Positions 2,980 to 41,101 of a DNA stretch of 64,000 bases are shown in pieces. The notes under the pieces are model-generated. The model had not been told where the DNA came from, did not search any database, and saw only the letters and a program-made list of their open reading frames with translations. Position numbers and translations under genes: made by a program. The first letter of the stretch is position 1, and each line of letters begins with the position of its first letter. This DNA is from Candidatus Caenarcanales bacterium (GTDB taxonomy: Bacteria; Cyanobacteriota; Vampirovibrionia; LMEP-6097). The stretch covers positions 79,939 to 143,938 of the forward strand of contig JABSOS010000004.1 of assembly GCA_013216135.1 (NCBI GenBank). The letters are read 5' to 3'.

Positions 2980-3568
2980 TAGGTATTCTGTTAATGATAA
3001 GTATACTTATCAAGATTCTGATGTATTAATTAATAGACTTAATATTAAGGATGCTCAGGCTTTGGAAGAAGCCGAATTTCGCTACTCTACTATTCGATCT
3101 GTTGAGCTAACTGAAAAATTTTTAAAGGTTCCATTTAATACTTATATTTTAAAAGATATTCATAAAAAGCTATTTAGTGATGTCTATGATTGGGCAGGTG
3201 AATATAGAACTGTTGATATATCCAAAGGTAATTCTCGCTTTTGTAATATGAATTTTATTGAATCTGAATTAGAGAGGGTTTATAAGGAAATAAAAAGTTT
3301 AAATTATCTTCAAAATCTAGATCAAAAAGAATTTAGTGAGCAAGTAGCGTATTTTATAGGTGAAATAAATGCTATTCACCCTTTTAGGGAAGGTAATGGA
3401 AGGACTCAGCGAGAGTTTATAAATCAGTTAGCTCTTAATTCTAATTATTACGTTAATTGGCATGATTGTTTGGTTGAAGATATACTGGAAGCCACTATCA
3501 AGAGCTTTGCTCAAGAATATGGTATGTTAAGTCAGTTGATTTTTGATAACTTAATTTTATTTGATTAG
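2972..3568 (+). CDS. fic: Fic-family protein (AMPylator/Doc-like toxin)
   Basis: Canonical Fic motif HPFREGNGRTQRE at about aa 145; 198 aa. Confidence 0.85.
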   Translation: MSNRYSVNDKYTYQDSDVLINRLNIKDAQALEEAEFRYSTIRSVELTEKFLKVPFNTYILKDIHKKLFSDVYDWAGEYRTVDISKGNSRFCNMNFIESELERVYKEIKSLNYLQNLDQKEFSEQVAYFIGEINAIHPFREGNGRTQREFINQLALNSNYYVNWHDCLVEDILEATIKSFAQEYGMLSQLIFDNLILFD

Positions 3569-3597
3569 GTTTTTAAAGTTATATATCTAAATGGAAC

Positions 3598-3642
3598 CTG
3601 TTAATCGATCGGTCACTGGTTCGAATCCAGTCTTGGGAGCCA
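3598..3642 (+). tRNA. tRNA-Asn(GTT) 3'-half fragment (anticodon loop CTGTTAA through T-arm, acceptor 3' strand and CCA); no 5' half, so att-site copy
   Basis: ctgttaa tcgat cggtc ACTGG TTCGAAT CCAGT CTTGGGA G CCA. Perfect T-arm and a GTT anticodon with U33/A37. No complementary acceptor strand TCCCAAG upstream. Near-identical copy at 25703-25752. Confidence 0.6.
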
Positions 3643-3737
3643 TTAAAAGAAAGCCCTGGTCGATTGATTGGGGCTTTTTTGTTTTTAAGGCTTTTAGTCA
3701 TTTTCAAAATATACCGTTAACACTATTAACACTAACT
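3635..3737 (+). repeat. About 100-bp direct repeat (tRNA 3' tip + terminator-like hairpin + flank), copy 1 of 2; partner 29521-29620
   Basis: gggagccattaaaagaaagccctgRtcgattgattggggcttttttgtttttaaggcttt, then catttYcaRcaaatatWccgtWaacaYtatWaacaYta, about 85% identical overall. Contains a GCCC..GGGC stem plus T-tract. Confidence 0.65.
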
Positions 3738-3778
3738 TTCAAAAATATATATTAACTGATATTTGGGTTTTGGAGGTG

Positions 3779-3804
3779 AATTATTATCCTGCGGGATAAT
3801 AATT
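3779..3804. repeat. 26-bp perfect palindrome aattattatccTGCGggataataatt (family copy P1)
   Basis: Exact inverted 11-nt arms. Identical to the copy at 18114-18139. Confidence 0.8.
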
Positions 3805-4148: not shown

Positions 4149-5369
4149 TTATTTTTTAATCTCTCCTTCTGTTGGAGACTTTTGATAAGCTCCCTCTTGA
4201 GAAGACACTTCTGAATCAGGGTCATTATTCTTATTAATGGTTTCATGAGACGAGGCTGGTTTATTATCTTTGTGAATATATTTGAAACTCTCATTACCTC
4301 TTTTTTGTTTCCCAAATAAAAAATGATAAATACCTTTAAAAGCCGAAGTTAAGATACCTTTCTTTTCCTCTTTCTTTTTAGGTAGATTATCTTCTCTTTC
4401 TTCACTTAGCTTTTTGTCTTTAAATAACTGGTAGTAACCTGAACTATTACCAAAAATTTGTGATTTTTGTACATAACCATTATTGTCAAACAAAGCGAAA
4501 CCAGAAATATGCCCACCTAAATACCATTCATTATTTCCTGCTATACGAGAAACCAAATTTTCTTTATGTTTTATTAGACCACCAGCTATAGACTTGTTTA
4601 TGTATAAAATTTTTACTTTTGAAGCTTTATCATCATCTTTTTTATCAGCTTTATAGACATAAGCTTGTGCTATTTCTAATAATATCTCAGAAAGCTTGGT
4701 TTTAACTAAGTCTTTGCTTTCTTGGCTTATATCTTGGCTTTCTGTAACTTTACTATTGATGCTAGACACTAGATCTAAAATACTTGATAATTCTCCCTTT
4801 GATAAAAAAATTATATTTTTTTTTGTAGAGTTAAGAACTTTAGCATTTAAATTTGTATTTTTATGTAATTGAGCTGCAACAATATAGGGAAGTAGATCTG
4901 CCTTAATATTTATTTCATTTGACTCAACAGTCTCTTTATTTATAACAATATCAAGAAGCTTATCTGATAAATCAATCGCTTTTTCAATCGCACCTAAACT
5001 AATAAAGGGTTCATTTATGTGAATTTGATCAAGAAATGGAAAATTTTTGGGTTCAATTTCTTCTACTGACTTTTTGAAAAGTTCTAACTTCTCAATAATA
5101 GATTGACCTTCAAATAAAGGCATTGAATTTGTTACTATTAAATCTTTGGTTTCTTTCAAACAATCTTCAAGAGACAAATTGATATCCTGGGCTGTTTTAC
5201 TTAAACTTTTATAAGCTAACATTTCCTGCATGATATTTTTGACATTAGTTTTTTGGATATTAATCTTTGGAGATTTTTTATTATCAGTAGATGCGTCTTC
5301 CTTATCTTTAGCCAAAGCATAAATAGGGGAACAAAAAAAGATTAATGTGAGGATAAATATAAATCTCAT
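4149..5369 (-). CDS. Secreted Lys/Glu-rich hypothetical protein (signal peptide)
   Basis: 406 aa. N-terminal MRFIFILTLIFFCSPIYALA. Charged low-complexity regions. Confidence 0.5.
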   Translation of the reverse strand: MRFIFILTLIFFCSPIYALAKDKEDASTDNKKSPKINIQKTNVKNIMQEMLAYKSLSKTAQDINLSLEDCLKETKDLIVTNSMPLFEGQSIIEKLELFKKSVEEIEPKNFPFLDQIHINEPFISLGAIEKAIDLSDKLLDIVINKETVESNEINIKADLLPYIVAAQLHKNTNLNAKVLNSTKKNIIFLSKGELSSILDLVSSINSKVTESQDISQESKDLVKTKLSEILLEIAQAYVYKADKKDDDKASKVKILYINKSIAGGLIKHKENLVSRIAGNNEWYLGGHISGFALFDNNGYVQKSQIFGNSSGYYQLFKDKKLSEEREDNLPKKKEEKKGILTSAFKGIYHFLFGKQKRGNESFKYIHKDNKPASSHETINKNNDPDSEVSSQEGAYQKSPTEGEIKK

Positions 5370-6014: not shown

Positions 6015-6929
6015 CTAAGAGTCAAAAAAATTAAGATTCTTTAGTTCACTATCTTCATCGAAGACATCAAATTTTTTATTAAGATTAAAGTAATTATGAA
6101 AGTGTTTGACGAGCTTGGTTTTTACTGGTTTTAACTTATTCTTATATATTTCTGTTGATAAATAAAAGTTTTCAGTATATAAGAAAATTAATTTTGAGAT
6201 TAGTTCTTTTTGTTGAACTTTATTCATTAATGGAAGTTCTTTTACTAGTAATGTATTAGCAGTCTTGTTGTTTTTTAAAAAAGAAATTGTCACAATCGTA
6301 TCATTATTAAGTGGTATTAAATTAAGTATTATTGGATCTAAATGTTTAAGGCTACATTTCTCTTGGAGTAAATTAACTGGCTCGTGATTGATATCATTTT
6401 CTAAAAAAAAAGCTCCAGAGGCTAAGCAGTGCAAAGAGTCATTAAATATTATTGACACAGAATCTAATACATTATATTTTTTTTGCCATATGCTAGTTAG
6501 TAGCAAATTTTTGTAATACTCTAATCTGTAATACGCAAAGCAGCTTCCAACATCAATAAAGCTTGGATTATGATGGGTATCAAATTTTTCAGCCTGTGAG
6601 TTTATACAATTCATTTTTAATAAGTATTCTTTAGATAGGGTTCTAAGGGATAATTTCTCAATATGTTCTGGATTTGTAAAATCAAAGTTATGATCTTCAA
6701 AGCATTTGAATAATTCTTTGTCGTGATAACCACAAAATCCTCTAAATGTAGATGCTTGCCTTATTCCTATTTCTTCAAAATCACCACTACTCGGGGCTAT
6801 ACTAATAACCCTTCCATTTTTTGCAATTTTTCTCAAAAATTTTTTTGAGATTGAATGAGCCTGGATTATATTATCTTCACAATTTTCTGATTTGGCGACA
6901 CAAAATTTAATTTCTTGGAGAAATCTCAT
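6015..6929 (-). CDS. Hypothetical protein (Cys/His-rich segment GFCGYHDKELFKCFEDHN)
   Basis: 304-aa ORF convergent with 5524-5973. Possible metal-binding or nuclease-like segment, but no confident family. Confidence 0.45.
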   Translation of the reverse strand: MRFLQEIKFCVAKSENCEDNIIQAHSISKKFLRKIAKNGRVISIAPSSGDFEEIGIRQASTFRGFCGYHDKELFKCFEDHNFDFTNPEHIEKLSLRTLSKEYLLKMNCINSQAEKFDTHHNPSFIDVGSCFAYYRLEYYKNLLLTSIWQKKYNVLDSVSIIFNDSLHCLASGAFFLENDINHEPVNLLQEKCSLKHLDPIILNLIPLNNDTIVTISFLKNNKTANTLLVKELPLMNKVQQKELISKLIFLYTENFYLSTEIYKNKLKPVKTKLVKHFHNYFNLNKKFDVFDEDSELKNLNFFDS

Positions 6930-6964
6930 ATAGTAAATTTTAAATCATGAATTTGAGAGAGTTG

Positions 6965-6990
6965 AATTATTATCCCACTGGATAATAATT
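6965..6990. repeat. 26-bp palindrome aattattatccCACTggataataatt (P2)
   Basis: Same 11-nt arms as P1/P6 with a different 4-nt centre. Confidence 0.8.
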
Positions 6991-8187: not shown

Positions 8188-9594
8188 ATGACTGAGAATT
8201 CAATAACCATAGATGAGCAAGATATTGAATTATTTAACAGTGTATTTTCTAAGGAAAATTTAGAAAATACTTTTAAAAATAAGAAGAGCATATATTCAAA
8301 ACAATCATCTGGAATTGATAGAAAAAGCATTGAAAATTTTGAGAAAGAAACAAAAAATATTTTCCCAAAAATTTTAGAGAAAATAAAGGGTTCTGATTAT
8401 TATTTTTCCCCATATGTAGAAAGTTTATTTTTAAGAGGCCCAGATAAGCAACCACGAAGAATTTCTTTACCTACAATTCGAGATAAATTAACTCTAGACT
8501 TGGTTCGGCAATATTTAAATAAAAAGCTTGGTCAATCAGTAAAGAGGACTTTACCAAATATTTATATAAAGGAAATAAAAAAATTCTTTGAAGATAAGGA
8601 TACGAAATCTCTTAAATATAAAAGAATTGACATTTCAAGTTTTTATAAAAGTATCAATCACATAATTCTTTTGAACTTTCTTAGAAATATTAAAGTTCAT
8701 GATTCTGTTTATACTTTAATTAGAAGAGCTATAAAAACAAATACTTACAACAAATCAGTTTATTTAAGGAAAGACAAGGAAAATAACAATAAAGGTTTAC
8801 CAGAGGGACTTTCCATTTCAAATGTATTGGCTGAGTATTATTTACGTGAGATTGGTTTGATACCTATTCCTCAAGGTGTTTTATACCAACGCTACGTGGA
8901 TGATATTTTGATCTTGTATCAAGACGAACATGCTTTTCAGTCTTTCTATAATAAAATTGAAAGGAAATTCAAGAAACTTGATCTAAATATTTCGAAAGAT
9001 GAAGATAAGACGGGAGAGGGGAATCTTTCTAGTGATAAGGGCTTCAATTTTCTTGGTTATGATTTTAAAAAAGGTAAAATCTATGCAAAGCGAAGATCAC
9101 AGGTAAAGCTTATTAATACAATAATTAAATTGTTTACACAGTATAAGTATAGTACACAAAAAAATGAGTTGAAGAACCGAATATTGATAGAAGATGTTAA
9201 TGAAAAGCTTACTGGCGCTATGTCTGAAAGTATAAAGTATGGTTGGATATTTTTTTTCCGTGAAATAACTGATATTAACTTTTTGTACCAAGTTGATATT
9301 CTTGTGGAAAAGCTTCTTGATAGATATAAGCTTAGTGTTTCTAGTGAAGTGAAAAAAATAAAACAAATCTCAAAAGCTTATTATAAATTGAAAAAAAATG
9401 ACTATAGCTACTGTCATAATTATGATGCATATTCGACATTTTCAGATAAAATAAACTATCTTTCAGGAAGAGTAAAGGAATCTAGAGAAGATTTAAAAAC
9501 TAAGACATTTGAATATATTGATAGTCTATTTAAAGAGGTACGCAATAGAAATTTGAGTAATTTAGAAAAGGATAATGGGGTAGAATCATACTAG
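8188..9594 (+). CDS. Reverse transcriptase (RVT_1; retron/Abi/defense-associated-like, no endonuclease or maturase extension recognised)
   Basis: RT motifs: RRISLPTIRDKLTLDLV (1-2), LPEGLSISNVLAEYYL (4), YQRYVDDILIL (5, YVDD), KLDLNISKDEDKT (6), FNFLGYDF (7). Thumb-like KYGWIFFF. Confidence 0.85.
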   Translation: MTENSITIDEQDIELFNSVFSKENLENTFKNKKSIYSKQSSGIDRKSIENFEKETKNIFPKILEKIKGSDYYFSPYVESLFLRGPDKQPRRISLPTIRDKLTLDLVRQYLNKKLGQSVKRTLPNIYIKEIKKFFEDKDTKSLKYKRIDISSFYKSINHIILLNFLRNIKVHDSVYTLIRRAIKTNTYNKSVYLRKDKENNNKGLPEGLSISNVLAEYYLREIGLIPIPQGVLYQRYVDDILILYQDEHAFQSFYNKIERKFKKLDLNISKDEDKTGEGNLSSDKGFNFLGYDFKKGKIYAKRRSQVKLINTIIKLFTQYKYSTQKNELKNRILIEDVNEKLTGAMSESIKYGWIFFFREITDINFLYQVDILVEKLLDRYKLSVSSEVKKIKQISKAYYKLKKNDYSYCHNYDAYSTFSDKINYLSGRVKESREDLKTKTFEYIDSLFKEVRNRNLSNLEKDNGVESY

Positions 9595-9727: not shown

Positions 9728-10357
9728 ATGTTTAAAGCTATAAAGTCGGAAGTAGAGGATTTTCAAAGAAGAGTTAAAATTACACGTGGAGCCAGATATA
9801 ATGCTTTCAGAAGAAATGAAGCTAAAAGTATTTATTCTTCCTGTACTTTGATATTTTTATCAATATTTATTTTTGCTCTTAATTTACTTCCTTACTATAA
9901 TTTTTTGAATATTGATTTGTTAAAGGATAAGAACTCAAGTATTCAGTTTTCGGCACTAATACTTTCTGTTTTCTTGTTGGTTTTTTCTCTTCTAGAAGCC
10001 AATAATAGTTATAAGTATAATGCAGATAAATTTCATGGTTTTGCTATAGGTCTAGAAAATATTGTAAATGAATTAGATCGATGTTCTTCTGAAAATCAGT
10101 TAGAAAGAATAAAAACAGAGTATGTCGACCAGTTGGAAAAATCTTTTTTGAATCATTTAGAAATTGACTATTTGATTTCATCAGCAAGATACTACACACC
10201 AAGTAGTGATAGTAAATGTTTAGATAAAGTCCTTTATTGGTTGAAAATCATCATTTATGGTACGCGTAATTTTGTTTTTACTTTATTGCCCTATTTATTA
10301 CTTATCTCCCTGTCAGTATATTATGTTGCTTACTGTCAACTTAATATCATTAATTAA
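9728..10357 (+). CDS. Integral membrane protein (about 4 TM), possible effector of the RT cassette
   Basis: 209 aa. Hydrophobic segments IFLSIFIFALNLL, ALILSVFLLVFSLL, FVFTLLPYLLLISLSVYYVAY. Confidence 0.5.
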   Translation: MFKAIKSEVEDFQRRVKITRGARYNAFRRNEAKSIYSSCTLIFLSIFIFALNLLPYYNFLNIDLLKDKNSSIQFSALILSVFLLVFSLLEANNSYKYNADKFHGFAIGLENIVNELDRCSSENQLERIKTEYVDQLEKSFLNHLEIDYLISSARYYTPSSDSKCLDKVLYWLKIIIYGTRNFVFTLLPYLLLISLSVYYVAYCQLNIIN

Positions 10358-11969: not shown

Positions 11970-14900
11970 ATGTTTAGTGATAGCTATTTTTTAGAATTAC
12001 AATTTGAAAATAGGGTGTATAGTCTAAACTCTTATGAATTTCAGAAATTTTTTGAAGATATTATGCTAAAAAAATTTCCTGGACATTTTCAAAGAGTTAG
12101 ACCATATGGAAATAAAGGTGATGGTGGTAATGACGGTTTCATGAAAGAGGATGGGAAGTATTTTCAATCCTACGCACCTTTAAAAGTCAATGAAGACAAA
12201 GAAAAAGAAGCTATACAAAAGTTTAGAGATGACTTTCAAAAACTCTTATCAAGTGAATGGGGCAATTTTTCTAAAATTAAAGAATATTACTTTGTTTATA
12301 ACGATAAATTTTATGGCACTACTATCGAATTTGAGAAAGAACTTCACGTTTACCAAGAGGGTTACCCACAAATAAAATTTTATTTATTAGGAACAGATCA
12401 ACTTAAATCCATATTCAAAGAATTAAGTGAAGATGATTATAAAAGTCTAAATTTTAATACAGATAAATCAGCTTCTCATCTTATTGTAGAAGCATACCTT
12501 AATAATATTGAGAATCAAATAAAATTAAACAATGTTCATATTGCTGAAAATGCACTAGACTTATTAGACCAAATCCTTAATTCTGAGGAATTAAAAAAAA
12601 ATTCACAATATATTGATCTCTATATTAAGAACTCTGTCATGAAGTATAAGTATTTTTTACTAAAAGAGAGATTTCAAAATGCTATTGACACCTTAGAAAA
12701 ACTAACTGCAAGATATCCTGAACGTTGTGAACCACTTTTACATCTGGCTGATTATTACTGTAGCCAGGATGAGATAAACTTAGCTTCAAGCTTATATGAA
12801 AAAGCAACAACAAAAATAAATTTTGGTGATTATTGGCTTAATAAATATGTTCCAATATATATCAAAATTAAAAGTAATTTGTCCTTTGTTGAAGATGATT
12901 TTGTCTTATTGAGAAGCTTGAATGATAATCAAAGAGCATGTTTCTATAGATTATTTTCTATGTATTACTTAAATAAAGATATAGAAAAATCTCTTGAATA
13001 TATAGATAAAGCTATAGAGTTTGACCCAAAAAATCTCTCTTTTATTCTAACTAAACTCAATATATACAAAGCTCAGTTAGTGAATAACTATTCTGAAAAA
13101 CTGTATAGGCTTGAATTTGTAGATAATATGGAAAAAGTTATTATCTATATTGATGAATCTTTTTCTTTCATATCCGTTAGAAGTAAATTACTTTTACAGA
13201 TGAATAAACTCTGTATTCTCTGGTGTCAAGAGAAAATACAAAGCTGTATTCTGTTACTTGAAGGTATTTCAGAGTTACTGGTTGAATGTGATTTTAATAA
13301 AGGAATCGATTCTGTAATCTGTGAGCTATTAACTTCAGTTGTAACTCCAGACCTATTTGAAGTTATTCTTGATTATTGCCTAGATAATAAATCCAAACAA
13401 TTTTCTGATTTATTACTAAAATTAATTTTCAATCATGCGCTAAGGGATCAAAAATTAAAACAACAAGCTCAAGTTTTTTTTGAATCAATTTCAGCCAATC
13501 AGGGCTCTAAATATATAAAACTAATGAGCTTTATTAACTCTGGAGATGAAGAAGAATTTATTAAAATTGTTAGTGCTGACACTAATTTTCTTCTAATGCT
13601 GGCAGAAACATTAAAGATAAATCCTGAATTTAGGAAAAAAATAATTTTTCATTTGAGAGACTCTAATAATGAATATTCAAATATACTTTATACAATATTT
13701 TTATTTGATATTGGTGAAGATAAAGAGGCTTTTGAGTATTTAAAAAAAATTGATTTGAGAAACATAACAGTTCCCCAATATGATCCTTTACTCAGAGTTG
13801 CTTTGAAAAATGAAGCTTGGGATTTGGCTGAAATAATAATAGTGCAAATAATTGATAAAGAAGAAAATGATAAATATCGATATTTTTTAAATACACAGTT
13901 ATTAAACTGCTATGTTCATTTAGGAAAGCACCTTGAAGCAACAAAAGTTGGAAAAGCCTTATTAAAGTCGGAACAATTTAATAGTTCTGATACTGAAAAA
14001 ATTTTAGAGCTGTTACTATATTCTTACCTCAAACTGAGTCAACATTCTAATAGATATAAAAATGAGGTAAAAGAAATATATTATAGTTATCGTGAATATA
14101 ATTTTTCTTTGAATTTTCTTTTAAATATTGCTAGTTTTGTTCATGCATATCTTGGTACAGGTGATGACCTTGTAAGTTTAATAGTCAGATCTATATCCAA
14201 ATTAAATAAAAATCCAAATCCACTGGAGTATGCTCAAATATTTACGGTTCTAACTTTAAAAAACCAAGTCAAAATTGATATTGAGTCTAGTAAGAAAACT
14301 GTTACTGAAGATTCATTTGTGAAAATTATAGAAGATGATGACTGGTACTATATTGGTAACGGAAATTGTTTATGTGCTATTCCTCTTCAAGAAACACAAA
14401 CTAAATACCATCAACTATTCAATGCCTCTTTAGGTGACAAAAATATTGAAAAGATATTTGATTTAAGGCAATTTTTATACTATAAAGCTAGGGAAATATT
14501 TAATAAACAAATAGAAAAAGATAATTTGGACAATATGAAGAAATTCAACTTACTGGATTCTTCGGGTAATATTGATATAAATAGATTTAAAGATACAATA
14601 GCTGAGTTACAAAACTCTGAATCTACATTTTTTGATAAATATTCTGAAAATACATATCCATTAGCTATGCTTGCTTTATTTGAAGGAGGTTTAATACCTT
14701 CAATTGCAAAGATTCAGAGAGAAAATAAAGGCTACATTCACTCAAGTGATGGAAGTATTAATGAAATTGAAAGACAAAGCTCGCTTATTAAAGAGTTGAT
14801 TAAAGCTAAGTCTGAGCTTTACATTGATACAACATCAATTCTTTTCTTAAGTGAGGTGGGTATTTTTAACCACTTTATTAATTTATTTTCAAAGTACAAA

Positions 14901-15788
14901 ATAGTTCAGTCATCAATTAATTTTTTGTCTGACACTTTAGACACCTATAAATATAGGAAGGGAACATTGGGAACTGCAAGTGTCATAAATAATGAGCTTG
15001 TTTACTTACCTTTCAATAAAGCTCGAAAGAAGCAAATTCAAAAATTTGAGAAAAGGTTACTTGAATCAATTAAGTTTCTCAATAAGGATCTCAACAGGAT
15101 TGATTCATTATCAAAAGCTTCAAAGTCTTCTGTTCCTTCTGAACAGAGAATACCACCAGAACTCTGTGATGGAGCGATTATGGCTAAGAAAAATAAATTG
15201 CCAATTATGACAGATGACTATGTTTACCTTCACTGGAACGCTCTTGAGACAAACTTAGAACCACCTCAATATTTTTCATCTATAGCTTTTTTAGAGTATT
15301 TGTATGAGCAAAAAATAATAAATTTTGAAGAATACTTGGATTGCTTTTATTATTTCTCTTCATATAGATTTAGGTTTATGAGTATCAATAAACAGATTTT
15401 GTATAAAACTATATTTGGTGATGATCTTATAGTGTTGGTTAATCCAGGTAACATAAGGAAACTTAACCTTCATTTGATTTTATCAAGAGACTATGGTGTT
15501 TCACTTCAAAATTGTTTTAGATTAATTGGTGAGTTTGTTTATGATTTAGTAAAAAACAAATCAATAATATTTAGTGTACTGAATGATGTTTTAATCAGTT
15601 TATTAAATTATCTACCACTTGAATATAAATCCATCTTGTCTTATAAAATGATTGTTGACTATTGTACAAAGAGATACGAAGCTGAAAAAAAAGAAAGAAC
15701 AATTATTGACTTGAAAAATGACTTTCTAGAGAAGAGGTTAAGTCAATTACAAGATGTGTGTGGTTTAACCACTCTCTTGAAATTTTAG
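11970..15788 (+). CDS. 1272-aa protein: N-terminal Mrr-like PD-(D/E)xK nuclease motif + long alpha-helical/TPR-like repeat region; no Walker A
   Basis: YGNKGDGGNDGF ... YFQSYAPLKV resembles the Mrr_cat GxDGGxDG signature. The rest is predicted helical repeats. No GxxxxGK[ST]. Confidence 0.6.
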   Translation: MFSDSYFLELQFENRVYSLNSYEFQKFFEDIMLKKFPGHFQRVRPYGNKGDGGNDGFMKEDGKYFQSYAPLKVNEDKEKEAIQKFRDDFQKLLSSEWGNFSKIKEYYFVYNDKFYGTTIEFEKELHVYQEGYPQIKFYLLGTDQLKSIFKELSEDDYKSLNFNTDKSASHLIVEAYLNNIENQIKLNNVHIAENALDLLDQILNSEELKKNSQYIDLYIKNSVMKYKYFLLKERFQNAIDTLEKLTARYPERCEPLLHLADYYCSQDEINLASSLYEKATTKINFGDYWLNKYVPIYIKIKSNLSFVEDDFVLLRSLNDNQRACFYRLFSMYYLNKDIEKSLEYIDKAIEFDPKNLSFILTKLNIYKAQLVNNYSEKLYRLEFVDNMEKVIIYIDESFSFISVRSKLLLQMNKLCILWCQEKIQSCILLLEGISELLVECDFNKGIDSVICELLTSVVTPDLFEVILDYCLDNKSKQFSDLLLKLIFNHALRDQKLKQQAQVFFESISANQGSKYIKLMSFINSGDEEEFIKIVSADTNFLLMLAETLKINPEFRKKIIFHLRDSNNEYSNILYTIFLFDIGEDKEAFEYLKKIDLRNITVPQYDPLLRVALKNEAWDLAEIIIVQIIDKEENDKYRYFLNTQLLNCYVHLGKHLEATKVGKALLKSEQFNSSDTEKILELLLYSYLKLSQHSNRYKNEVKEIYYSYREYNFSLNFLLNIASFVHAYLGTGDDLVSLIVRSISKLNKNPNPLEYAQIFTVLTLKNQVKIDIESSKKTVTEDSFVKIIEDDDWYYIGNGNCLCAIPLQETQTKYHQLFNASLGDKNIEKIFDLRQFLYYKAREIFNKQIEKDNLDNMKKFNLLDSSGNIDINRFKDTIAELQNSESTFFDKYSENTYPLAMLALFEGGLIPSIAKIQRENKGYIHSSDGSINEIERQSSLIKELIKAKSELYIDTTSILFLSEVGIFNHFINLFSKYKIVQSSINFLSDTLDTYKYRKGTLGTASVINNELVYLPFNKARKKQIQKFEKRLLESIKFLNKDLNRIDSLSKASKSSVPSEQRIPPELCDGAIMAKKNKLPIMTDDYVYLHWNALETNLEPPQYFSSIAFLEYLYEQKIINFEEYLDCFYYFSSYRFRFMSINKQILYKTIFGDDLIVLVNPGNIRKLNLHLILSRDYGVSLQNCFRLIGEFVYDLVKNKSIIFSVLNDVLISLLNYLPLEYKSILSYKMIVDYCTKRYEAEKKERTIIDLKNDFLEKRLSQLQDVCGLTTLLKF

Positions 15789-16010: not shown

Positions 16011-16517
16011 ATGAGATCAGTCTTATTTATAATTCTCACATTATTTGTTTTTGCTGGAGGTTATTATGCTGGTAAAAATTCCAAGAATCTAGAATTTACT
16101 GATTCAAAGCCAGAGCTTTTTGTTAAAGCTGAAACAAAGATGGAAAGTTATCAAAACACCTATCTAAAACCTCTAAGGGTAATTGATGGTGACACCATAG
16201 AATTTGAAATAGTTAATCTCCCATATCCAGAAATCTCTATTCTAAAGCTTAGAATCTTCGGAGTTGATACTCCTGAAAAGTCATGGCGTACAAAATGTGA
16301 ACAAGAGAAAAATCTAGCAAACCTAGCTTCATCTTTTACAGAAGACTTATTTAATAAAGCAGATCATAAAGAGATAAAGCTTATGAAGTGGGGTAAATAC
16401 GGTGGTAGGGTTTTAGGTGATATTTATTTAGATGGTAAATCTTTAAAAGAAGAGCTTTTAAGTAAAGGGTTAGCTAAAGAATACTTTGGTAAGGAAAAGG
16501 TATCTTGGTGTGAATAA
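16011..16517 (+). CDS. Secreted/membrane-anchored thermonuclease (staphylococcal nuclease, SNase family)
   Basis: N-terminal hydrophobic anchor. VIDGDTIEF, RIFGVDTPEK, KYGGRVLGDIY match the SNase Ca-binding and catalytic motifs. Confidence 0.8.
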   Translation: MRSVLFIILTLFVFAGGYYAGKNSKNLEFTDSKPELFVKAETKMESYQNTYLKPLRVIDGDTIEFEIVNLPYPEISILKLRIFGVDTPEKSWRTKCEQEKNLANLASSFTEDLFNKADHKEIKLMKWGKYGGRVLGDIYLDGKSLKEELLSKGLAKEYFGKEKVSWCE

Positions 16518-17994: not shown

Positions 17995-18113
17995 GATTTT
18001 GAAATACTCCGTCAGTTTAGCTATGGAGAAACTCCGTATTTATGATTTTCATTCGCGAGTGAAAGCAGAAAATAGCAAATCTCTATGCCACCTTGTATTA
18101 AGTAGTAGTGATT

Positions 18114-18139
18114 AATTATTATCCTGCGGGATAATAATT
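18114..18139. repeat. 26-bp perfect palindrome identical to P1 (P6)
   Basis: aattattatcctgcgggataataatt. Confidence 0.8.
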
Positions 18140-18578
18140 AGAAGTAAGGAAGTAAATAAAAAACTAATTATAAAAAGAGCATTTTAGAAGTTTATAAAAG
18201 ATGTACTAAAGCTTAATACCCTTATAAATACTCAAGTTCTGTGAATAGTCAATTGCTAATTTTGTTTTTAGTAGGTTGCAAAGCTGCTTGCAGAAGGATA
18301 TTTAAAAATAATGATTACGGTTAGATTAATTTTTTTTAACCTTTCTGCTGGTAAAATTTCTGAAAGTCTTATCAGTTTTGAGATCTGAATGAAGATTACT
18401 TTCAGTGAAAATTCACTTATTATTGATTTATTTTTCGTTCTTTTGGATAGTGGCTCTAGGACTTGGATATGAATATTTGCATTTTTTAGATTTTTAAAAA
18501 TAAATAAATATTCAAATGCTGAATTGGGTTTTACTAACATTTTTTTCTGTCTTATATCGAAGAGATAAATTAATTTTG

Positions 18579-18604
18579 ATTTATTATCCCGCGGGATAAT
18601 AAAT
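18579..18604. repeat. 26-bp perfect palindrome atttattatcccGCgggataataaat (P7)
   Basis: 12-nt perfect arms; lies 89 bp upstream of the tyrosine recombinase gene. Confidence 0.8.
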
Positions 18605-29520: not shown

Positions 29521-29620
29521 GGGAGCCATTAAAAGAAAGCCCTGATCGATTGATTGGGGCTTTTTTGTTTTTAAGGCTTTAAACATTTCAGCAAATATTC
29601 CGTAAACATTATAAACATTA
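29521..29620 (+). repeat. About 100-bp repeat copy 2 (partner of 3635-3737); shares only the last 10 nt of the tRNA fragment
   Basis: gggagccattaaaagaaagccctgatcgattgattggggcttttttgtttttaaggcttt ... Upstream sequence does not fold as a tRNA T-arm. Confidence 0.65.
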
Positions 29621-29677: not shown

Positions 29678-31456
29678 TCAGAATCCAACTTCGTCAATAT
29701 TACTATTTGAGTTTTCTATGATTAATTCAACTGGACCCACATTGTCAGATTGTCCATCGTAGAAATCACCTATATAATAGCCGGTGGTTTCAAAATCTTC
29801 TAAGTCACTTTGCCTTCTTATTCTAGATACAGACCCAGAAATGTTGGTATTGTAAACTTCAAGTGGAGTAAAAGTATTATTTGTTCTATTTGAAACAAAT
29901 AAACGCCCAACTATATAGCCAAAAGAACTACTTCCTCTTCCATCATCAAAATTAACTTTAATATTCGCATTATTTACTAGGATTGGATACTCTTTAATTT
30001 TATCAATCTCGTCAACAGTAATCGATGCAGTGGAGATGAGTCCTCCAGCCCTTACATCAGCTGAAATAGAACCGAGTTTATGATTAACTTTGAGACTAAC
30101 ATCAATATCAATATTATTAAATTTAAGTCCAGGTGATGCACTATTAGCTATTATAGCAAGGGAATTCCTTGCTATGTTTTGTCTCTCAGATTGATAATTC
30201 CAGTCTACTGTTTTTAGGTTTATATTTCCTGTGATTTTAACATTCGTAAAATTGGTTCTCCCTATTTCATTTGCAAATACTGCAACTGAGTTCTCACCTG
30301 ATATATTAATATTTTCAAGAGTTAAGTTTTTAATTTCTGCTGCTCCTTTTAAACTGCCGATTAGTTCAAATATCGCAGCTTCTGAATTACGGTTCATGTA
30401 TAATCCTGAAATTTTGTGTCCTCTCCCATCAAAATGAAATAAGCCATGAGTATAAAAAAAACGAATGGGTGGAAACCCTTCTCCATCATGCCAGTTCTTT
30501 GTTTCTGAGCAGTCAATATCGTTAAGCAACTCAATATGTAAATTGTCGTGAACTAAATGTGTACTATTGTATGATCTATTTAGTTTTTGAAGATCCACAC
30601 AATTTTCTATTTTAAAAGGGTTATTAATTGTACCTTTTCCCTTAGGCTTTTCGTTAGCCTCAGTTTTTCTTAGTTCTTCTTGAAAATCAAATTCACTTGC
30701 TTTTATAAAAGTCATCTCAAAATTACCTTTCAAATAAGGTCTAGTCCACAAATATATAATTTGTGAATTACTTTTTGGTATTGGTAAACTATCAAAAATA
30801 TTACCTTTAACTGTTACCAGATTTGGATTCTCTGAAGATTTCTCAATCGTGATTTTACGTAAGTAAGAGCTATACCAAATATAATCTTCATTAAAAGAGC
30901 CATCATTAAGCCCTGAATTAAATCCAGAATTACTATTCTCTAATCTTGAGTATAATTCTTTAAAATCTGGTATATATTCATCTGGGATTACTTCACTCGA
31001 GAATGAAATGACGAGAGAAGTATCAAATTTGTCTCTTAAGGACTTTCTTTTCTCAAGATTAATAGTCTTTATATAGTCATTTTTAGAAGAAGCAAATGCT
31101 TTATCTACTTCATTAATTAAATCAATATTTGATAATGAAAAAAAATATTTTTTATCATTTGTATTATCAATATTCGTTTCTTCAATAGTAAATCCACCTA
31201 TACCTGAGTTAACCTGACCTAGAAAAACTATTTTTTTTTCTCTTGGTATATTTTCACTATTAGCTTGGAGAAATTTGTTTCTTTTATTAATCAAAGTTCG
31301 GTATTTAGCTCCCCTCCTTTTCTGGTTAAATGCTTCTAAGGAAACTTGAGTAATGACTTCATATTTCAGCTCATTTTCAGCATTTGCAGGAACTTGTATA
31401 GAAAATATTACTAACAATGCAATATATAGTTTTAATATAATATGCTTGTGTATCAT
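29678..31456 (-). CDS. Secreted hypothetical protein (signal peptide), 592 aa
   Basis: MIHKHIILKLYIALLVIFSIQVPANA. Asn/Ser-rich; no family recognised. Confidence 0.5.
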   Translation of the reverse strand: MIHKHIILKLYIALLVIFSIQVPANAENELKYEVITQVSLEAFNQKRRGAKYRTLINKRNKFLQANSENIPREKKIVFLGQVNSGIGGFTIEETNIDNTNDKKYFFSLSNIDLINEVDKAFASSKNDYIKTINLEKRKSLRDKFDTSLVISFSSEVIPDEYIPDFKELYSRLENSNSGFNSGLNDGSFNEDYIWYSSYLRKITIEKSSENPNLVTVKGNIFDSLPIPKSNSQIIYLWTRPYLKGNFEMTFIKASEFDFQEELRKTEANEKPKGKGTINNPFKIENCVDLQKLNRSYNSTHLVHDNLHIELLNDIDCSETKNWHDGEGFPPIRFFYTHGLFHFDGRGHKISGLYMNRNSEAAIFELIGSLKGAAEIKNLTLENINISGENSVAVFANEIGRTNFTNVKITGNINLKTVDWNYQSERQNIARNSLAIIANSASPGLKFNNIDIDVSLKVNHKLGSISADVRAGGLISTASITVDEIDKIKEYPILVNNANIKVNFDDGRGSSSFGYIVGRLFVSNRTNNTFTPLEVYNTNISGSVSRIRRQSDLEDFETTGYYIGDFYDGQSDNVGPVELIIENSNSNIDEVGF

Positions 31457-31600
31457 AGTTGTATTGATTCCAAAGTTGAATTAATTGAAGGTTAAAGCAA
31501 TACCAACTTTGGATAAAAAATAAAAATATTTTCTATAAAAATGTTTAAAACATTTCAAATCTGGGCATAATATATTTATCAAACAAAATATTTGAATTAA

Positions 31601-31627
31601 TTGATCCAAGAAATTGGGTCTTTTTTG
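31601..31627 (+). terminator. Hairpin + T-tract element ttgatccaagaaattgggtcttttttg (copy 2)
   Basis: Same element as 23525-23550, with one G-U pair in the stem. Confidence 0.4.
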
Positions 31628-31702
31628 TTTATAAGACTAAGTTTTCTTCAGCGTCACATTTATGCCAATAAATATAGAATCCCTTGTTTAAAGCTAACTG
31701 AT

Positions 31703-31938
31703 TTAAAATTCTCTTTGAGTTCTACCATTACCTTCTCTGAAAGGGTGTATTGCATTGATTGCACCCATATAGTAAGCAGATCTCATATTGAACTCTTTTT
31801 TCTCTAAATTTTGAAGAAAATGCTCTTCATGTAATGTATTTATTATTGACTTAACTTATCATGGTCATAAATCTCTAATTTATTCTTGAAAACATTGTTA
31901 TTAGAGTATTTTTAGTTATCCTCTGATGAGTACTTATC
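31703..31938 (-). pseudogene. Decayed Fic toxin pseudogene (paralog of 2972-3568), internally deleted with premature stops
   Basis: Minus-strand translation gives MSDKYSSEDN* ... LHEEHFLQNLEKKEFNMRSAYYMGAINAIHPFREGNGRTQREF*. This collinear with Fic1 MSNRYSVNDKY ... LNYLQNLDQKEFSEQVAYFIGEINAIHPFREGNGRTQREF, but about 230 bp remain of about 600. Confidence 0.6.
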
Positions 31939-31943
31939 AGACA

Positions 31944-32126
31944 TTAACTATATCTCTTGGTGATGTTTGATAAAGCTTGAGGAACATCTAGGTTTCCTTT
32001 CAAAATCAAACTAAGATCTTTCAGAAATGCTCGTGAAGTTTTTAATCCCTCTAATCGTTGTTGAGCAATAGCTATTTTAGCAGCAATTTTTGAAAATTCA
32101 AATTCTTTAGTTTTAAGGTCTTTCAA
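31944..32126 (-). CDS. VbhA-like antitoxin paralog (intact), partner of the decayed Fic
   Basis: IAIAQQRLEGLK ... LILKGNLDVPQALSNITKRY parallels 2767-2979 (AIAQQRIEGNK ... LIAKGEMDTETAIRNVNKFY). Confidence 0.55.
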   Translation of the reverse strand: MKDLKTKEFEFSKIAAKIAIAQQRLEGLKTSRAFLKDLSLILKGNLDVPQALSNITKRYS

Positions 32127-32231
32127 GTTGATTTCCTTTTTAACTAATTCTAATCATAATATGCCTTGATATTATTAAGGTTTATCTGTCTTCCAGACTT
32201 TTTTCTACTATGACTATATTGGCTTACCCTT

Positions 32232-34169
32232 CTATTGAAAAATTGGAGCAAGGTAATGCTCAAGCAATGTGTCAGAAGCTGAGTTGAAAAACTCTCGGAA
32301 TTGTCCCAAAAGATTTTTATTCTCTTCATCATCTTCATTATTTTTAAAAAACTCAGTATCAAGATCAAAGAGTTTAGATGCCATATCTAATGAAACCCAG
32401 GCTCTATCTTGGGTCTCAACACAAAATAAATCTCTTATTTTATAAAGTTTAAAACCATTATTTTCAAGTAATGGTCCATCTTCTAAAGTTCTCATAAGCT
32501 CCATCTTACTTAGACGGTTTTTTTGAAGCTGCTGATGCTCACGCTTATTGATGATAAGTGAAAATTCAGTATCATCAATCAAATGAGTTTCATATGTATA
32601 ATCCCAAAAGTTTGTGTCAATTGAGTTTAAGTCAAGGATATATGCAAAATCATTTTCATTAGATTTTTTAACTAAGTAAAGATTTTCACTGGGATTGAAT
32701 GCAATAATATCTACATTGGAGTCATTTTTTAATTGAACTCTTATAGGTTTTTCTATATCATGGAAATGATCAAATGTGTGTGAATCATTCAAATCTACTT
32801 TTTGATGTATAAAAGTTTCAATATTAAAAAATCCTTCTTCCATAAACGTATTTAGGCGATTATCATTACTATCCTTTATTTCTAATACTTTATCTTTCAT
32901 TGCTGTTATTAAAAATGAATTAGTTCCTTCAGCTACAGCTGTTGCTAATGATTCAAACATAAGAGAGTACATGGTAAGACTCGTTGCGGCTAGATAACTT
33001 GAAAATTTTTTAAATTTTGATTCAGCTATAGGTGTTATTAGCTCTAGAAGAGGTAGTGCTTGAGAACAATGAAGAAGATACCTGGGACTTCCAGTGGCAA
33101 GTGCTATGGGCAAACTTGTAAGTGCAGCAATACCTGAATTTTTATACTTTTTGAGAAATTGCTTTTTCCAGCCAATACTTTCATTCGATAAGTCTTGATC
33201 TGTTTTTTCATTATTATTTAAAAAATTATATGAATAGAGATAGGTCAACATTGTAAAAGCTCTATTCTTAGTTGGTGAGATTTCTGGATTCGTTGAATCT
33301 AAGGCAAGCTTATTTAAGTCAACATTATTAATCAAGGGGTTAATAATATCTATTAGGTGTTGAACAGTATGTGTTTCATTTAAAGCAATCATTGACATGG
33401 TTAGTAGTGAGAGTTGACTTATTTTTTTGAGCATTTGGCGTGATTTGTTGTGTGACTCTTCAATTGCAAGAAAAGCCTCATTTAAACTTATCTTGTAGTC
33501 ATTCGTTAACTTAGGATTCTCTCTAGTATTGATTATTAGATTTTTAGTTGGGATAAAATTATTGAAATCAGACTTGTTTGTTTCTGCACATGTGTTCCTA
33601 CACTTAAACTCATTTTCAAAATCTTTATTTAATTGATTGTTTAAACTTCTTAAATGATCAAGTGATAATGATAGTGCTTGGAAACGTTTTACTTTGACAC
33701 TTCTATTGCTTAAATTAGGTTCAACAGGTTTGCATGAATTGACTTCTTTAAAACATAATTTCAATTTTTTTTGGAATTCTCTAAGTTCAATGTTATTAGT
33801 CGTAAATTGTTTTTGTTGTAAATTCTCCCAGTTCATCAATAAATCATCTAATTTTTGACTATGATCTGATTCTGAGATTTTGTGAATATTGGTAACAGTT
33901 TCTATAAACTTTGTTACGGTATTTTTCAATTTGAATGTTAAAGCAAAATCTTTTTTGTCAATTTGTTGTTGATTGGCGATCAGAGTTGCAGCTTTATTGT
34001 AAATGGGATTAACTTTTATAGAAGCCTCTACTGTATTATCTATGGGATCATTATTGCAAGGTTTTTTCTTTTTATGTTCTGATTTAGATTCACTTACATC
34101 AGTTGCAGCATTTATATTATCTCTTCTATCTTTTAACGGATCATTATAAGAACCTCGAAAATTTATCAT
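32232..34169 (-). CDS. Hypothetical protein, 645 aa
   Basis: Long ORF. No family recognised. Confidence 0.5.
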   Translation of the reverse strand: MINFRGSYNDPLKDRRDNINAATDVSESKSEHKKKKPCNNDPIDNTVEASIKVNPIYNKAATLIANQQQIDKKDFALTFKLKNTVTKFIETVTNIHKISESDHSQKLDDLLMNWENLQQKQFTTNNIELREFQKKLKLCFKEVNSCKPVEPNLSNRSVKVKRFQALSLSLDHLRSLNNQLNKDFENEFKCRNTCAETNKSDFNNFIPTKNLIINTRENPKLTNDYKISLNEAFLAIEESHNKSRQMLKKISQLSLLTMSMIALNETHTVQHLIDIINPLINNVDLNKLALDSTNPEISPTKNRAFTMLTYLYSYNFLNNNEKTDQDLSNESIGWKKQFLKKYKNSGIAALTSLPIALATGSPRYLLHCSQALPLLELITPIAESKFKKFSSYLAATSLTMYSLMFESLATAVAEGTNSFLITAMKDKVLEIKDSNDNRLNTFMEEGFFNIETFIHQKVDLNDSHTFDHFHDIEKPIRVQLKNDSNVDIIAFNPSENLYLVKKSNENDFAYILDLNSIDTNFWDYTYETHLIDDTEFSLIINKREHQQLQKNRLSKMELMRTLEDGPLLENNGFKLYKIRDLFCVETQDRAWVSLDMASKLFDLDTEFFKNNEDDEENKNLLGQFREFFNSASDTLLEHYLAPIFQ

Positions 34170-36279: not shown

Positions 36280-36692
36280 TGTATCCTATGATATTGCAGT
36301 TTGATTTTTATACTTTAATGATATTGGGGTTGATAACTTTAGCTGTATTTGTCACTGTATATATCTTATTAAGAAAAAAATATTTAAGTAAAGAGCAAGC
36401 CAAGCTTTACTGTAAGCAAATCCAAACAACAAGCAAGCTTGTTCCAAGCCACTCTCTAATAGAATCTCACAAAATTCTAGTTTCAGCTGTCTCTGAGATG
36501 CAAGGCAAAAAAGCAAATGCAGCCAAGCTTTTAAATAGAATTAAATCGAGGGTACTTGATGAAAAAGAAATGTGGTTCTATCACAGTATGCGTAACCGTG
36601 CAGCACACGAAGTGAATTTCAAAGTGTCTGAAAATGATGCTAAAAAGGCACGTAAAGTTTTCAAGAATGTTCTTGAGGCTTTAGTTAAATAA
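36279..36692 (+). CDS. Membrane-anchored hypothetical protein
   Basis: 137 aa. N-terminal TM. Start overlaps the MscS stop. Confidence 0.4.
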   Translation: MYPMILQFDFYTLMILGLITLAVFVTVYILLRKKYLSKEQAKLYCKQIQTTSKLVPSHSLIESHKILVSAVSEMQGKKANAAKLLNRIKSRVLDEKEMWFYHSMRNRAAHEVNFKVSENDAKKARKVFKNVLEALVK

Positions 36693-36696
36693 CTAA

Positions 36697-36835
36697 TTTC
36701 AGTCTTTCTTCAATAACGAAATTACTAAAGCAAATAAACTCACAAACGCCATAAGACCAAGAATTATCGTAGAAATTAACTTTTCAGCATTCCCTCTCCC
36801 AGAAAATGCCATTAAAGCAAGTGTGAACCTCTTGT
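36697..36835 (-). pseudogene. C-terminal fragment copy (about 45 codons) of the small membrane protein gene at 39372-39713
   Basis: Minus-strand translation *DKRFTLALMAFSGRGNAEKLISTIILGLMAFVSLFALVISLLKKD* versus intact ...TWRFTLALMAFSGGNAEKLTPTIILGLMAFVSLFTLVISLFKKETN*. About 85% nt identity over about 130 bp. Confidence 0.55.
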
Positions 36836-39298: not shown

Positions 39299-39371
39299 AA
39301 TTTTTTAACTATGGAAGCATTTTTTGATTGATAGTAATTATTTAGTAATAGTTGAGTCTTTAATCTGATAA

Positions 39372-39713
39372 TTAATTAGTCTCTTTTTTAAATAATGAAA
39401 TTACTAAAGTAAATAGACTTACAAATGCCATAAGACCAAGAATTATTGTAGGGGTTAACTTTTCAGCATTGCCTCCTGAAAAAGCCATTAAAGCAAGAGT
39501 AAACCTCCAGGTGAAAACTCCTAAGAAAGCTAAAGTTAATCCTTTTGAGATATAGTTGACAAAAGTCTTTTCAATAAAAAAGGACAAACTTAGAATAATA
39601 GTTCCACTAGCTACACCACTTATTAATGCTGATTTAGCGTGTGTTAAGAAGAAGCCTATTAAGCCCATTGAAATTAAAAATAAGCCGTATGATGTGAAAA
39701 TTTTTTTATCCAT
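39372..39713 (-). CDS. Small integral membrane protein (3-4 TM)
   Basis: 113 aa, strongly hydrophobic. Its 3' end is duplicated at 36697-36835. Confidence 0.5.
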   Translation of the reverse strand: MDKKIFTSYGLFLISMGLIGFFLTHAKSALISGVASGTIILSLSFFIEKTFVNYISKGLTLAFLGVFTWRFTLALMAFSGGNAEKLTPTIILGLMAFVSLFTLVISLFKKETN

Positions 39714-39819: not shown

Positions 39820-40440
39820 ATGAGTATCTTTAGAACTAACAGTATTGAAGAATTAAAAGAATTTTCTGAACGTTCTGACCAGTTAACTATTCTAGAACGT
39901 AGCCCTGTAAGAGGTGCGGAAGCTTTTTTTGAGGAGCTGATGATAAAGCCTTTTGGCTTTACGGGTGAAGTCTTTGGAGCTGATGCTGAAAAGAATGTTC
40001 GCGAGATTTTAGAAGAAAAATTTTCCTCTGAAATAGAAAGTAATCCATTTTATGATAGCTGGGTTTTAGATATGGTAAAGCTCTGTGAAGCTTTCTGCGA
40101 AATGCAAAACAGTGATTCTATTAGTTTTAAGCTTGGATCACAGCGTGGCTGTCGCCGCTATCATGTTGATTTCGTTCCACTACGTTTACTAGTTACTTAT
40201 GGAGGGAAAGGTACTGAGTTACTTCCAGATGAAGCTGCTGATCGTGATGCCTTTGAGAATGGAGAAGCTAATGAAAAGATTGTTAAGGATAGCTCTGTAA
40301 TAGAATTTATGAAACCTTGGGAAGTCGCTGTTTTTCATGGAGGTCCTAAGGGTATTTTGCATCGTACTCCAGATGATGCGCTTAACGGTCCTTCTGTGAT
40401 GATGCGACTTGATCATTCTACTTTTGGTTCGATGAAATGA
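39820..40440 (+). CDS. Hypothetical protein
   Basis: 206-aa ORF. Its last 25 nt plus downstream 30 nt are directly repeated at 40896-40960. Confidence 0.45.
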   Translation: MSIFRTNSIEELKEFSERSDQLTILERSPVRGAEAFFEELMIKPFGFTGEVFGADAEKNVREILEEKFSSEIESNPFYDSWVLDMVKLCEAFCEMQNSDSISFKLGSQRGCRRYHVDFVPLRLLVTYGGKGTELLPDEAADRDAFENGEANEKIVKDSSVIEFMKPWEVAVFHGGPKGILHRTPDDALNGPSVMMRLDHSTFGSMK

Positions 40441-40495
40441 AAGATTTCATTTGCGGAAAAATGACCCCTTAAAATTTTTCTCTGGGATTGCTAAC
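40432..40495 (+). repeat. About 60-bp direct repeat copy 1 (catgaaatgaaagatttcatttgcggaaaaatgaccccttaaa...ttctctg); copy 2 at 40896-40960
   Basis: Near-identical copies flank a 460-bp segment that carries two tiny hydrophobic ORFs. Confidence 0.6.
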
Positions 40496-40940
40496 TTCAT
40501 TTTTAATGTCTTCTAAAAACATTAAAGAAGAGAATAAGTATAAAGCTGAAACCTTTAGGACATTTGGTTTTGCCGTTATGGTTCCTTTTGCAAAAGCCTT
40601 TCTTGCATTTATTGAGGACTTTGAGATTATAAATGAGATTCACTTTCAAGTTAATGGTGTAATTTCTTTTTTACTTATATTTTTAGGTGTGAGGTTAATT
40701 GATATGGGAAGGCAAGTGATAGAATTTAACTAGGGTAAGCATTTTACTATGGAGATTGATACAACATTATTTGGTGCTTTATTTGCTTTTTTTATAGCAT
40801 TTTCTTTTAGTTCTTTTATCTTTTATCGTTTTGCTTTCCTGTGGGGAAAGCTTGATGGGAGAGTTCCTAAAGATGCTCGTTTTTGGAAATTTTTCTATCA
40901 TGAAATGAAAGATTTCATTTGCGGAAAAATGACCCCTTAA
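40488..40940 (+). CDS. Two tandem small hydrophobic ORFs (81 aa at 40488-40733; 63 aa at 40749-40940), doubtful
   Basis: Both are TM-like and bounded by the 60-bp direct repeat. The second ORF ends with the duplicated ...KDFICGKMTP tail. Confidence 0.25.
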
Positions 40941-41101
40941 ATTTTTTCTCTGAGATTGATAATTTTAATAAAGTGCTTAGAGCTTTTATGGGCTTCCTCA
41001 CATTAGAGCTCTAGGTGCACCTTAATTCAAGATAAAAATAAAAACATAGGAAAATTAGATCATGTTTATGTAAAATTGACATGACACATTGAAGCTCGGT
41101 A

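Follow-up and report, generated by a model that had tools for sequence, protein, structure and literature searches.

The window analysed here is a 64,000-nucleotide (nt) stretch of DNA from a Candidatus Caenarcanales bacterium (contig JABSOS010000004.1 of assembly GCA_013216135.1, positions 79,939 to 143,938), which has 32% G+C and is identical to a segment of a metagenome scaffold of 299.8 kb (ENA ERZ23488275, from sample SAMN09765683). It carries an orphan antitoxin gene of the VbhA/FicA type next to the remains of a Fic toxin gene and, near its left end, a second Fic pair that is intact. The orphan antitoxin is encoded on the minus strand by an open reading frame (ORF) at 31944-32126, which runs uninterrupted through 60 residues (MKDLKTKEFEFSKIAAKIAIAQQRLEGLKTSRAFLKDLSLILKGNLDVPQALSNITKRYS) from a TTG start codon (32126-32124) to a TAA stop codon (31946-31944). 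A ribosome-binding site, AAGGA (32134-32138, minus strand), lies 7 nt upstream of the TTG and is conserved in the related loci L004, L009 and L005-7 (relatives are numbered with the prefix L throughout). Met is absent from the interior of the protein, and all orthologs begin with the same TTG. The stop codon overlaps the ATG of the Fic gene (31944-31942) as TAATG (31942-31946), and the same overlap is present in the intact orthologs L004 and L009.

BLASTP showed that the orphan antitoxin is 45% identical (E 2e-15) to the 70-residue antitoxin of the second pair (2767-2979). As a single sequence it aligned end to end with VbhA of PDB entries 3SHG/3ZC7 at E 5e-3, and a profile built from seven alleles improved this to E 8e-5. 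Its score against the Pfam family VbhA (PF18495) was 14.3 bits (E 0.041), below the curated cut-off of 25.9, but the homology is still supported because of the match to the paralog and the profile result. Scans of genome and metagenome collections with the 60-residue antitoxin confirmed at least one relative in each; the sole named relative is 'MAG: antitoxin VbhA family protein [Candidatus Caenarcaniphilales bacterium]', on contig JAKVAO010000153.1 of GCA_022447685.1 (MAG, metagenome-assembled genome). The published inhibitory motif of FicA is (S/T)xxxE(G/N), the Glu of which blocks the second Arg (Arg2) of the Fic motif (PMC8401265). The corresponding helix of the orphan reads AQQRLEG (Q22-Q-R-L-E26-G27), in which the Glu-Gly with Glu26 is kept and the Ser/Thr position is occupied by Gln. 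The orphan is not defective in this respect, since the AQQxxEG helix including the Gln is invariant in all seven alleles, partners of intact toxins among them. It was also found at this position (QxxxEG) in 25 of 28 relatives read (P0123-P0169), which were obtained by searching 1.84 billion representative proteins. The Ser/Thr of the inhibitory motif is thus not universal in the VbhA-like subfamily. The orphan gene probably still encodes a foldable VbhA-like protein that could bind Fic toxins of its own subtype.

Downstream of the orphan gene, tblastn searches with Fic proteins found three fragments in three different frames, which cover residues 1-31 (31852-31944), 100-149 (31706-31855, including the Fic motif HPFREGNGRTQR) and 150-172 (31649-31708). 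Base-by-base DNA alignment of the window to the intact ortholog L004 resolved four lesions in the toxin gene, which is on the minus strand throughout. The N-terminal fragment (31855-31944, codons 1-30) carries the first, a TAA stop at 31912-31914 in place of Tyr11, for which L004, L009 and L011 have TAC. The second is a 208-nt out-of-frame deletion with its junction at 31854-31855; it corresponds to nt 412-619 of L004 (about codons 31-99), takes out the protein from alpha-1 through the flap and core, and shows a short TTA microhomology at the junction. In the middle fragment (31709-31854, about codons 100-148), the Fic motif HPFREGNGRTQR survives at 31715-31750, and the motif region reads ...YYMGAINAIHPFREGNGRTQREF, where Ala replaces a Glu found in 19 of 19 intact homologs read. 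The third lesion is the loss of a single base in a stretch of Ts (TTTTT to TTTT, 31708-31709), which shifts the frame after ...TQREF and leaves a frame-shifted fragment at 31649-31708 (about codons 150-169, LNQLALNKGFYIYWHKCDA). The fourth is a 130-nt deletion with its junction at 31648-31649, which costs the last 29 codons, the stop codon and 41 nt beyond. In L004 these 130 nt are flanked by 12-nt direct repeats (AAGAAATCTTAG and AAGAAAACTTAG), and a deletion between such repeats is the signature expected of slippage or short-repeat recombination. The 3′ flank of the module follows (31522-31648, minus strand); it is 93.7% identical to L004 and is also kept in L009. It holds a terminator-like hairpin (31603-31620, plus strand), which in L009 closes a convergent gene that is absent here. 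Folding of the flank as a candidate structured RNA gave no signal (z-score -0.15).

These results show that 31649-31944 is a Fic pseudogene. An earlier note on this DNA had described an intact 60-residue antitoxin paralog at 31944-32126 and a Fic gene surviving only as fragments with large internal deletions. Both descriptions agree with the present map of an open antitoxin frame with its TTG and AAGGA and of toxin fragments in three frames with 208 and 130 nt deleted, and the peptide strings quoted in it are exact. The extent it gave for the locus, 31703-32126, is too short, as the relic reaches 31649 and the conserved 3′ flank 31522.

A mis-assembly or sequencing error that hides an intact Fic gene would be compatible with the source, a metagenome-assembled scaffold, and with the nature of the third lesion, an indel in a homopolymer. 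However, 338 nt are gone in two deletions and the stop is a substitution. Moreover, the relic is identical, without gaps, in L003, an assembly from a different sample, and its sequence is identical in L002, which Logan assembled from a public sequencing run. The presence of the same sequence in L003 and of the codon-11 stop in L007 indicates a real pseudogene, and we regard an artefact as extremely improbable. Restoration of the Fic frame by a single frameshift was considered and rejected, because 338 nt are missing in two deletions in addition to the stop and the frameshift; this excludes the intact Fic that frame analysis, according to the earlier note, might have uncovered. An intact toxin with the Fic fold and the motif HxFx(D/E)GNGRxxR is present in L004 and in the other pair of the window, and not at the relic, where the motif alone survives.

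The locus L004, from another Caenarcaniphilales MAG, carries an antitoxin 85% identical to the orphan, the gene of which overlaps that of a full 197-residue Fic and is followed by an integrase gene. Over the whole module it is about 92% identical to the window at the nucleotide level, with 91.8% in the antitoxin, 85.4% in the N-terminal part of Fic, 93.7% in the middle fragment and the flank value given above. The L004 Fic matched the FIC domain of VbhT (PDB 3ZCB, E 3e-43, residues 6-194) with the canonical motif HPFREGNGRTQR, as well as the E. coli Fic structure (PDB 5JFF, E 1.5e-34). Orthologs of the decayed pair with 78-92% nucleotide identity were found in L004, L009 and L011-14, and both genes are kept in L004 and L011-14. 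In L009 (SPKZ01010743.1), the antitoxin is intact and 90% identical to the orphan, and the Fic gene (6183-6777) is full-length with one additional A in an A5 run; dropping this base restores a 197-residue protein, and the frameshift may be either a real pseudogene or a homopolymer assembly error. In the comparison between the two Fic sub-clades (window 31522-32126, L004, L009 and L011), the antitoxin gene was 88-92% identical at the nucleotide level and Fic sites only 77-78%, and inspection of the alignment by eye showed that the 3′ flank is highly conserved. The toxin therefore diverged much faster than its flanks, for which diversifying selection or recombination is a possible reason.

On this evidence, we lean towards reading the locus as a decaying FicTA type II toxin-antitoxin module (VbhTA-like, with a class I Fic) that once resided on a tRNA-targeting integrative element, with its toxin dead and its antitoxin drifting. 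Antitoxins of the FicA type consist of three helices, attach to helix alpha-1 of the toxin and place a Glu in a salt bridge with Arg2 of the Fic motif, so that ATP is forced into a non-reactive position, and FicT toxins, once set free, modify gyrase and topoisomerase IV by AMPylation (PMC8401265). The ancestral state is shown by L004, in which the gene of a 60-residue antitoxin shares one base with that of a 197-residue Fic adenylyltransferase. Judged from the homology to VbhA/VbhT, the first helix of the antitoxin would set Glu26 against the second Arg of the Fic motif and block productive ATP binding, and free toxin would, as in the family, AMPylate gyrase and topoisomerase IV. Loss of the antitoxin first poisons the cell, and the toxin thus has to be inactivated first; the codon-11 stop and the 208-nt, 1-nt and 130-nt deletions have killed its gene. 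After toxin death, the 183-nt antitoxin gene would have drifted for a time too short to acquire a lesion. Orphan antitoxins, Fic-associated ones included, are abundant, and many come from degraded pairs (PMC7192599, PMC5675462, PMC7354431). The survival of an antitoxin beyond its dead toxin is a common and expected route of decay, and the present locus is an ordinary case of this known phenomenon.

The lesion count and the substitutions are consistent with this view. Given four lesions in the 594-nt toxin gene and the same rate, the probability of no lesion in 183 nt is 0.29. Because the toxin must die first and the chance of an unhurt antitoxin is about 0.3, its retention needs no special explanation. 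Between the window and L004, the antitoxin differs by 10 nonsynonymous and 5 synonymous changes, with a ratio of nonsynonymous to synonymous rates (dN/dS) of 0.56. The Fic fragments differ by 9 nonsynonymous and 16 synonymous changes, and their dN/dS of 0.09 is a signature of purifying selection. Most of this divergence therefore predates the death of the toxin, which is recent on this timescale. The changes on the window lineage include the codon-11 stop and the replacement of the conserved Glu by Ala. The only difference in L007, a 516-nt contig from a sister sample, is a nonsynonymous one, F11L, in the orphan antitoxin.

Two observations weigh against unconstrained drift. First, when substitutions were polarised with L009 and L011, the antitoxin on the window lineage showed 2 conservative nonsynonymous changes (I9F and I48V) and 4 synonymous ones, which hints at constraint (binomial P 0.026). 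Second, all four separate lesions are in the toxin gene, and the antitoxin gene with its ribosome-binding site has escaped them, which is at least compatible with selection for the antitoxin. A scan for promoters was uninformative, as the sole sigma-70-like match upstream of the orphan (32241-32213) is at chance level (6 matches against 5.3 expected). The dN/dS and polarised tests, with only 6-15 substitutions, are underpowered, and the Fic fragments showed a trend similar to that of the antitoxin (5 nonsynonymous and 4 synonymous changes, P 0.054). The P value of 0.026 cannot isolate the period after toxin loss, because both segments bear earlier constraint and much of the branch predates toxin death. 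Current selective retention of the antitoxin is neither evident from these data nor required by them, and their simplest reading is that toxins die first and antitoxins persist for a while.

The same figures bear on the proposal that the orphan is kept as an anti-addiction gene, which would neutralise FicT toxins of its own subtype on incoming related elements, so that the host can lose or resist these elements without being poisoned. The concept of a chromosomal antitoxin that neutralises the homologous toxin of an incoming element is established in the literature (PMC7354431, PMC5675462). Suitable elements exist among the relatives: L004, L009 and L011-14 carry elements with 85-92% identical antitoxins, intact toxins and integrases with the same attachment (att) core, and the invariance of the antitoxin core across alleles makes cross-neutralisation within the subtype plausible. 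The small number of nonsynonymous changes on the window lineage (2 versus 4 synonymous) points the same way. On the other side, dN/dS and the substitution tests do not separate selection from recent drift, and the nonsynonymous F11L polymorphism segregates in the orphan. We consider anti-addiction unlikely for this gene. A broader version, in which FicTA modules are carried by tRNA-targeting islands next to defence islands, and Caenarcaniphilales hosts repeatedly disarm them (independently in the window, L009 and L010) and keep the antitoxin as heritable immunity against re-addiction, so that the orphan is a selected gene and not debris, is to us rather improbable. The loss of the toxin first at these three loci has a probability of 0.45 from target size alone, a figure that is illustrative and not significant.

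The second pair of the window consists of the antitoxin gene at 2767-2979 (plus strand, 70 residues), which scored 26.1 bits against the Pfam VbhA cut-off of 25.9, and an intact class I Fic toxin gene at 2972-3568 (plus strand, 198 residues, HPFREGNGRTQR), and the two ORFs overlap. Pfam identifies the toxin clearly as Fic (E 5e-20). Among NCBIfam models it matched those of VbhT and of E. coli Fic, the latter (PRK10347) with E 4e-45 and 153.9 bits, under the cut-off of 181 bits. It also matched the PADLOC phage-defence candidate family PDC-S04 (E 7e-73), and the FicTA pairs here, which border a defence island, may be candidates for defence rather than plain addiction modules. In L010, which is 95% identical to the window at the nucleotide level and has the same synteny as 1516-3650 (HtrA-like protease gene, antitoxin, Fic and att), the ortholog of this Fic gene (821-1201) bears a 216-nt in-frame deletion. 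Its product has 126 residues and lacks residues 61-132, and the 70-residue antitoxin is whole. A 16-nt match to the Fic 3′ end at 388-403 had suggested a third Fic/antitoxin copy; it was rejected as chance, and tblastn found no further copy in the window.

As the earlier note had recognised, the VbhA/FicA-type antitoxin beside its decayed Fic lies in inverted orientation 28 kb from the intact pair, it illustrates the usual fate of toxin-antitoxin loci, and the intact pair stands just left of att copy A. The pair ends 30 nt before this copy (3598-3734). The placement of the decayed pair to the right of att copy C (29521-29620) holds insofar as the pair lies beyond C, but it is 2 kb away with a 592-residue ORF between. 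The idea that an old duplication or inversion tied to integration produced the two copies is not supported. The two pairs are distant paralogs, with antitoxins 45% and toxins about 55% identical, and the Fic tree and identities put unrelated Fic proteins from databases at the same distance from each toxin as separates the two toxins. Each pair has its own orthologs elsewhere, adjacent to the same att site (a tRNA half) and to integrases of one family (at 78-92% nucleotide identity for the decayed pair, and L010 at 95% for the intact one), and both lineages thus predate the island array of this genome. A recent duplication was rejected, as the DNA alignment of the two pairs has a mean column identity of 67% and only the Fic-motif region aligns well. 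From these comparisons, the pairs are more likely separately acquired island cargo than the products of a local duplication or inversion.

The distance between the pairs also bears on whether the orphan could buffer or neutralise the resident paralogous Fic (2972-3568). The two antitoxins share A-I-A-Q-Q-R-(L/I)-E-G, which includes the inhibitory helix AQQR(L/I)EG, and 24 invariant columns. A precedent for cross-neutralisation is BiaA of Bartonella, a promiscuous FicA homolog that binds several non-identical FIC domains, among them those of many Bep proteins, although its partners are secreted effectors (PMC8401265). Against this stand the overlapping cognate antitoxin that the resident Fic already has and the low identities of antitoxins and toxins given above. 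In addition, the alpha-1 segment bound by FicA is identical at about 6 of 19 positions between the two toxin types, as read by eye from alignments with assumed helix limits. The sister strain L010 has a deletion in the resident type of Fic itself, so that no back-up is needed on a lasting basis. We regard protection of the resident Fic by the orphan as conceivable in principle but distinctly improbable, and if the orphan has any function, neutralising incoming toxins of its own subtype would be more plausible.

Toxin-first decay of an island-borne module, the reading preferred here, is set in a region with three att copies, all on the plus strand. Copy A consists of a 45-nt tRNA 3′ half (3598-3642) and 92 nt of a downstream terminator region. 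Copy B (25707-25757) contains the tRNA 3′ half at 25707-25751 and abuts an integrase gene (24477-25682, minus strand), and copy C comprises the last 8 nt of the tRNA (29521-29528) and the downstream region, 85% identical to A. The att core is thus a tRNA 3′ half, and its anticodon loop, as read by eye, is CTGTTAA (GUU, Asn-like). No intact tRNA or Rfam family was found in the window, and no complete tRNA was detected in the window, L001, L004 or L009. About 90 nt of downstream terminator sequence are common to copies A and C and to L009 (att at 4628-4706), and for this reason the islands seem to carry the region downstream of the tRNA along with them. The order of elements is att, integrase, antitoxin and Fic in L009, and antitoxin, Fic, a 19-nt att core (about 1127-1145) and integrase in L004. 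The integrases of both loci are 46-50% identical to that of the window at 24477-25682 and have the same att core. This type of FicTA therefore travels with a family of tRNA-targeting elements, since L009 and L004 adjoin an integrase and the same att core. The relic of the window lacks a neighbouring integrase and resembles what an old insertion leaves behind.

Among known systems, the VbhA/VbhT pair on plasmid pVbh of Bartonella schoenbuchensis (PDB 3SHG, 3ZC7 and 3ZCB) is organised in the same way, with a small three-helix antitoxin directly upstream of a class I Fic. The orphan aligns over residues 4-58 of VbhA with the inhibitory Glu-Gly conserved, and VbhA has Ser20 where the orphan has Gln. 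Unlike VbhT, the ancestral toxin here was a stand-alone Fic of about 197 residues without a BID domain, and whereas VbhTA is borne on a conjugative plasmid, the module here, with its dead toxin gene, is chromosomal or island-borne in Caenarcaniphilales. E. coli FicT/FicA (Fic/YhfG) and other FicTA systems resemble the present module in their stand-alone FicT of about 200 residues and type II organisation, but under the curated cut-off the intact Fic of the window does not count as an equivalog of E. coli Fic, and gyrase and topoisomerase IV would be its targets by family membership (PMC8401265). Orphans from degraded pairs, described in a Klebsiella pneumoniae survey and as four orphans on pVbh, are similar in that the antitoxin ORF keeps its original context by a disrupted toxin. 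The host phylum differs, and here the steps of decay were reconstructed base by base against an intact ortholog. For anti-addiction, the chromosomal ccd of Erwinia chrysanthemi has reportedly been shown experimentally to act as such a module; it is an intact pair of a different family.

In practice, the 60-residue ORF should be annotated as a VbhA/FicA-family antitoxin and 31649-31944 as a Fic pseudogene rather than as hypothetical ORFs, and beyond annotation the locus has little significance. It does offer a clean, base-resolved case of toxin-first decay that can be compared with an intact ortholog, and it records that tRNA-targeting islands carry FicTA modules in Caenarcaniphilales. The genome comes from an uncultured member of this poorly studied group of non-photosynthetic relatives of cyanobacteria. 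If the antitoxin were under selection, a Fic-family case would be added to the few tested anti-addiction systems.

The relic is flanked by two large ORFs on the minus strand, one of 592 residues (29678-31456) with a weak, sub-threshold match to Peptidase_M26_N and one of 645 residues (32232-34169). Neither had a Pfam match at the curated cut-off or a PADLOC match. In L003 a short sequence difference close to the 5′ end divides the 645-residue gene into parts of 45 and 565 residues. The interval between att copies A and B (3600-25760) looks like a defence and mobile island. It encodes a defence reverse transcriptase of the RT_UG17 type (8188-9594, PADLOC E 1e-106), a SLATT effector associated with the reverse transcriptase (9728-10357), a 1272-residue protein with a weak PIN-TPR match (11970-15788), a SNase-domain protein (16011-16517), an integrase (18693-19709), a SIR2-like protein (19742-20755) whose gene overlaps that of a second reverse transcriptase (20749-22020), a DUF3800 protein (23654-24466) and the integrase that adjoins copy B (24477-25682). 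A palindromic element, TTATTATCCYGCGGGATAATAA, occurs in four copies (3773-3804, 6959-6990, 18108-18139 and 18573-18604), all within this island. Two pairs of direct repeats unrelated to the Fic relic lie further right, one of 124 nt with 82% identity (36673-36796 and 39352-39475) and one of 66 nt with 94% identity (40432-40497 and 40900-40965).

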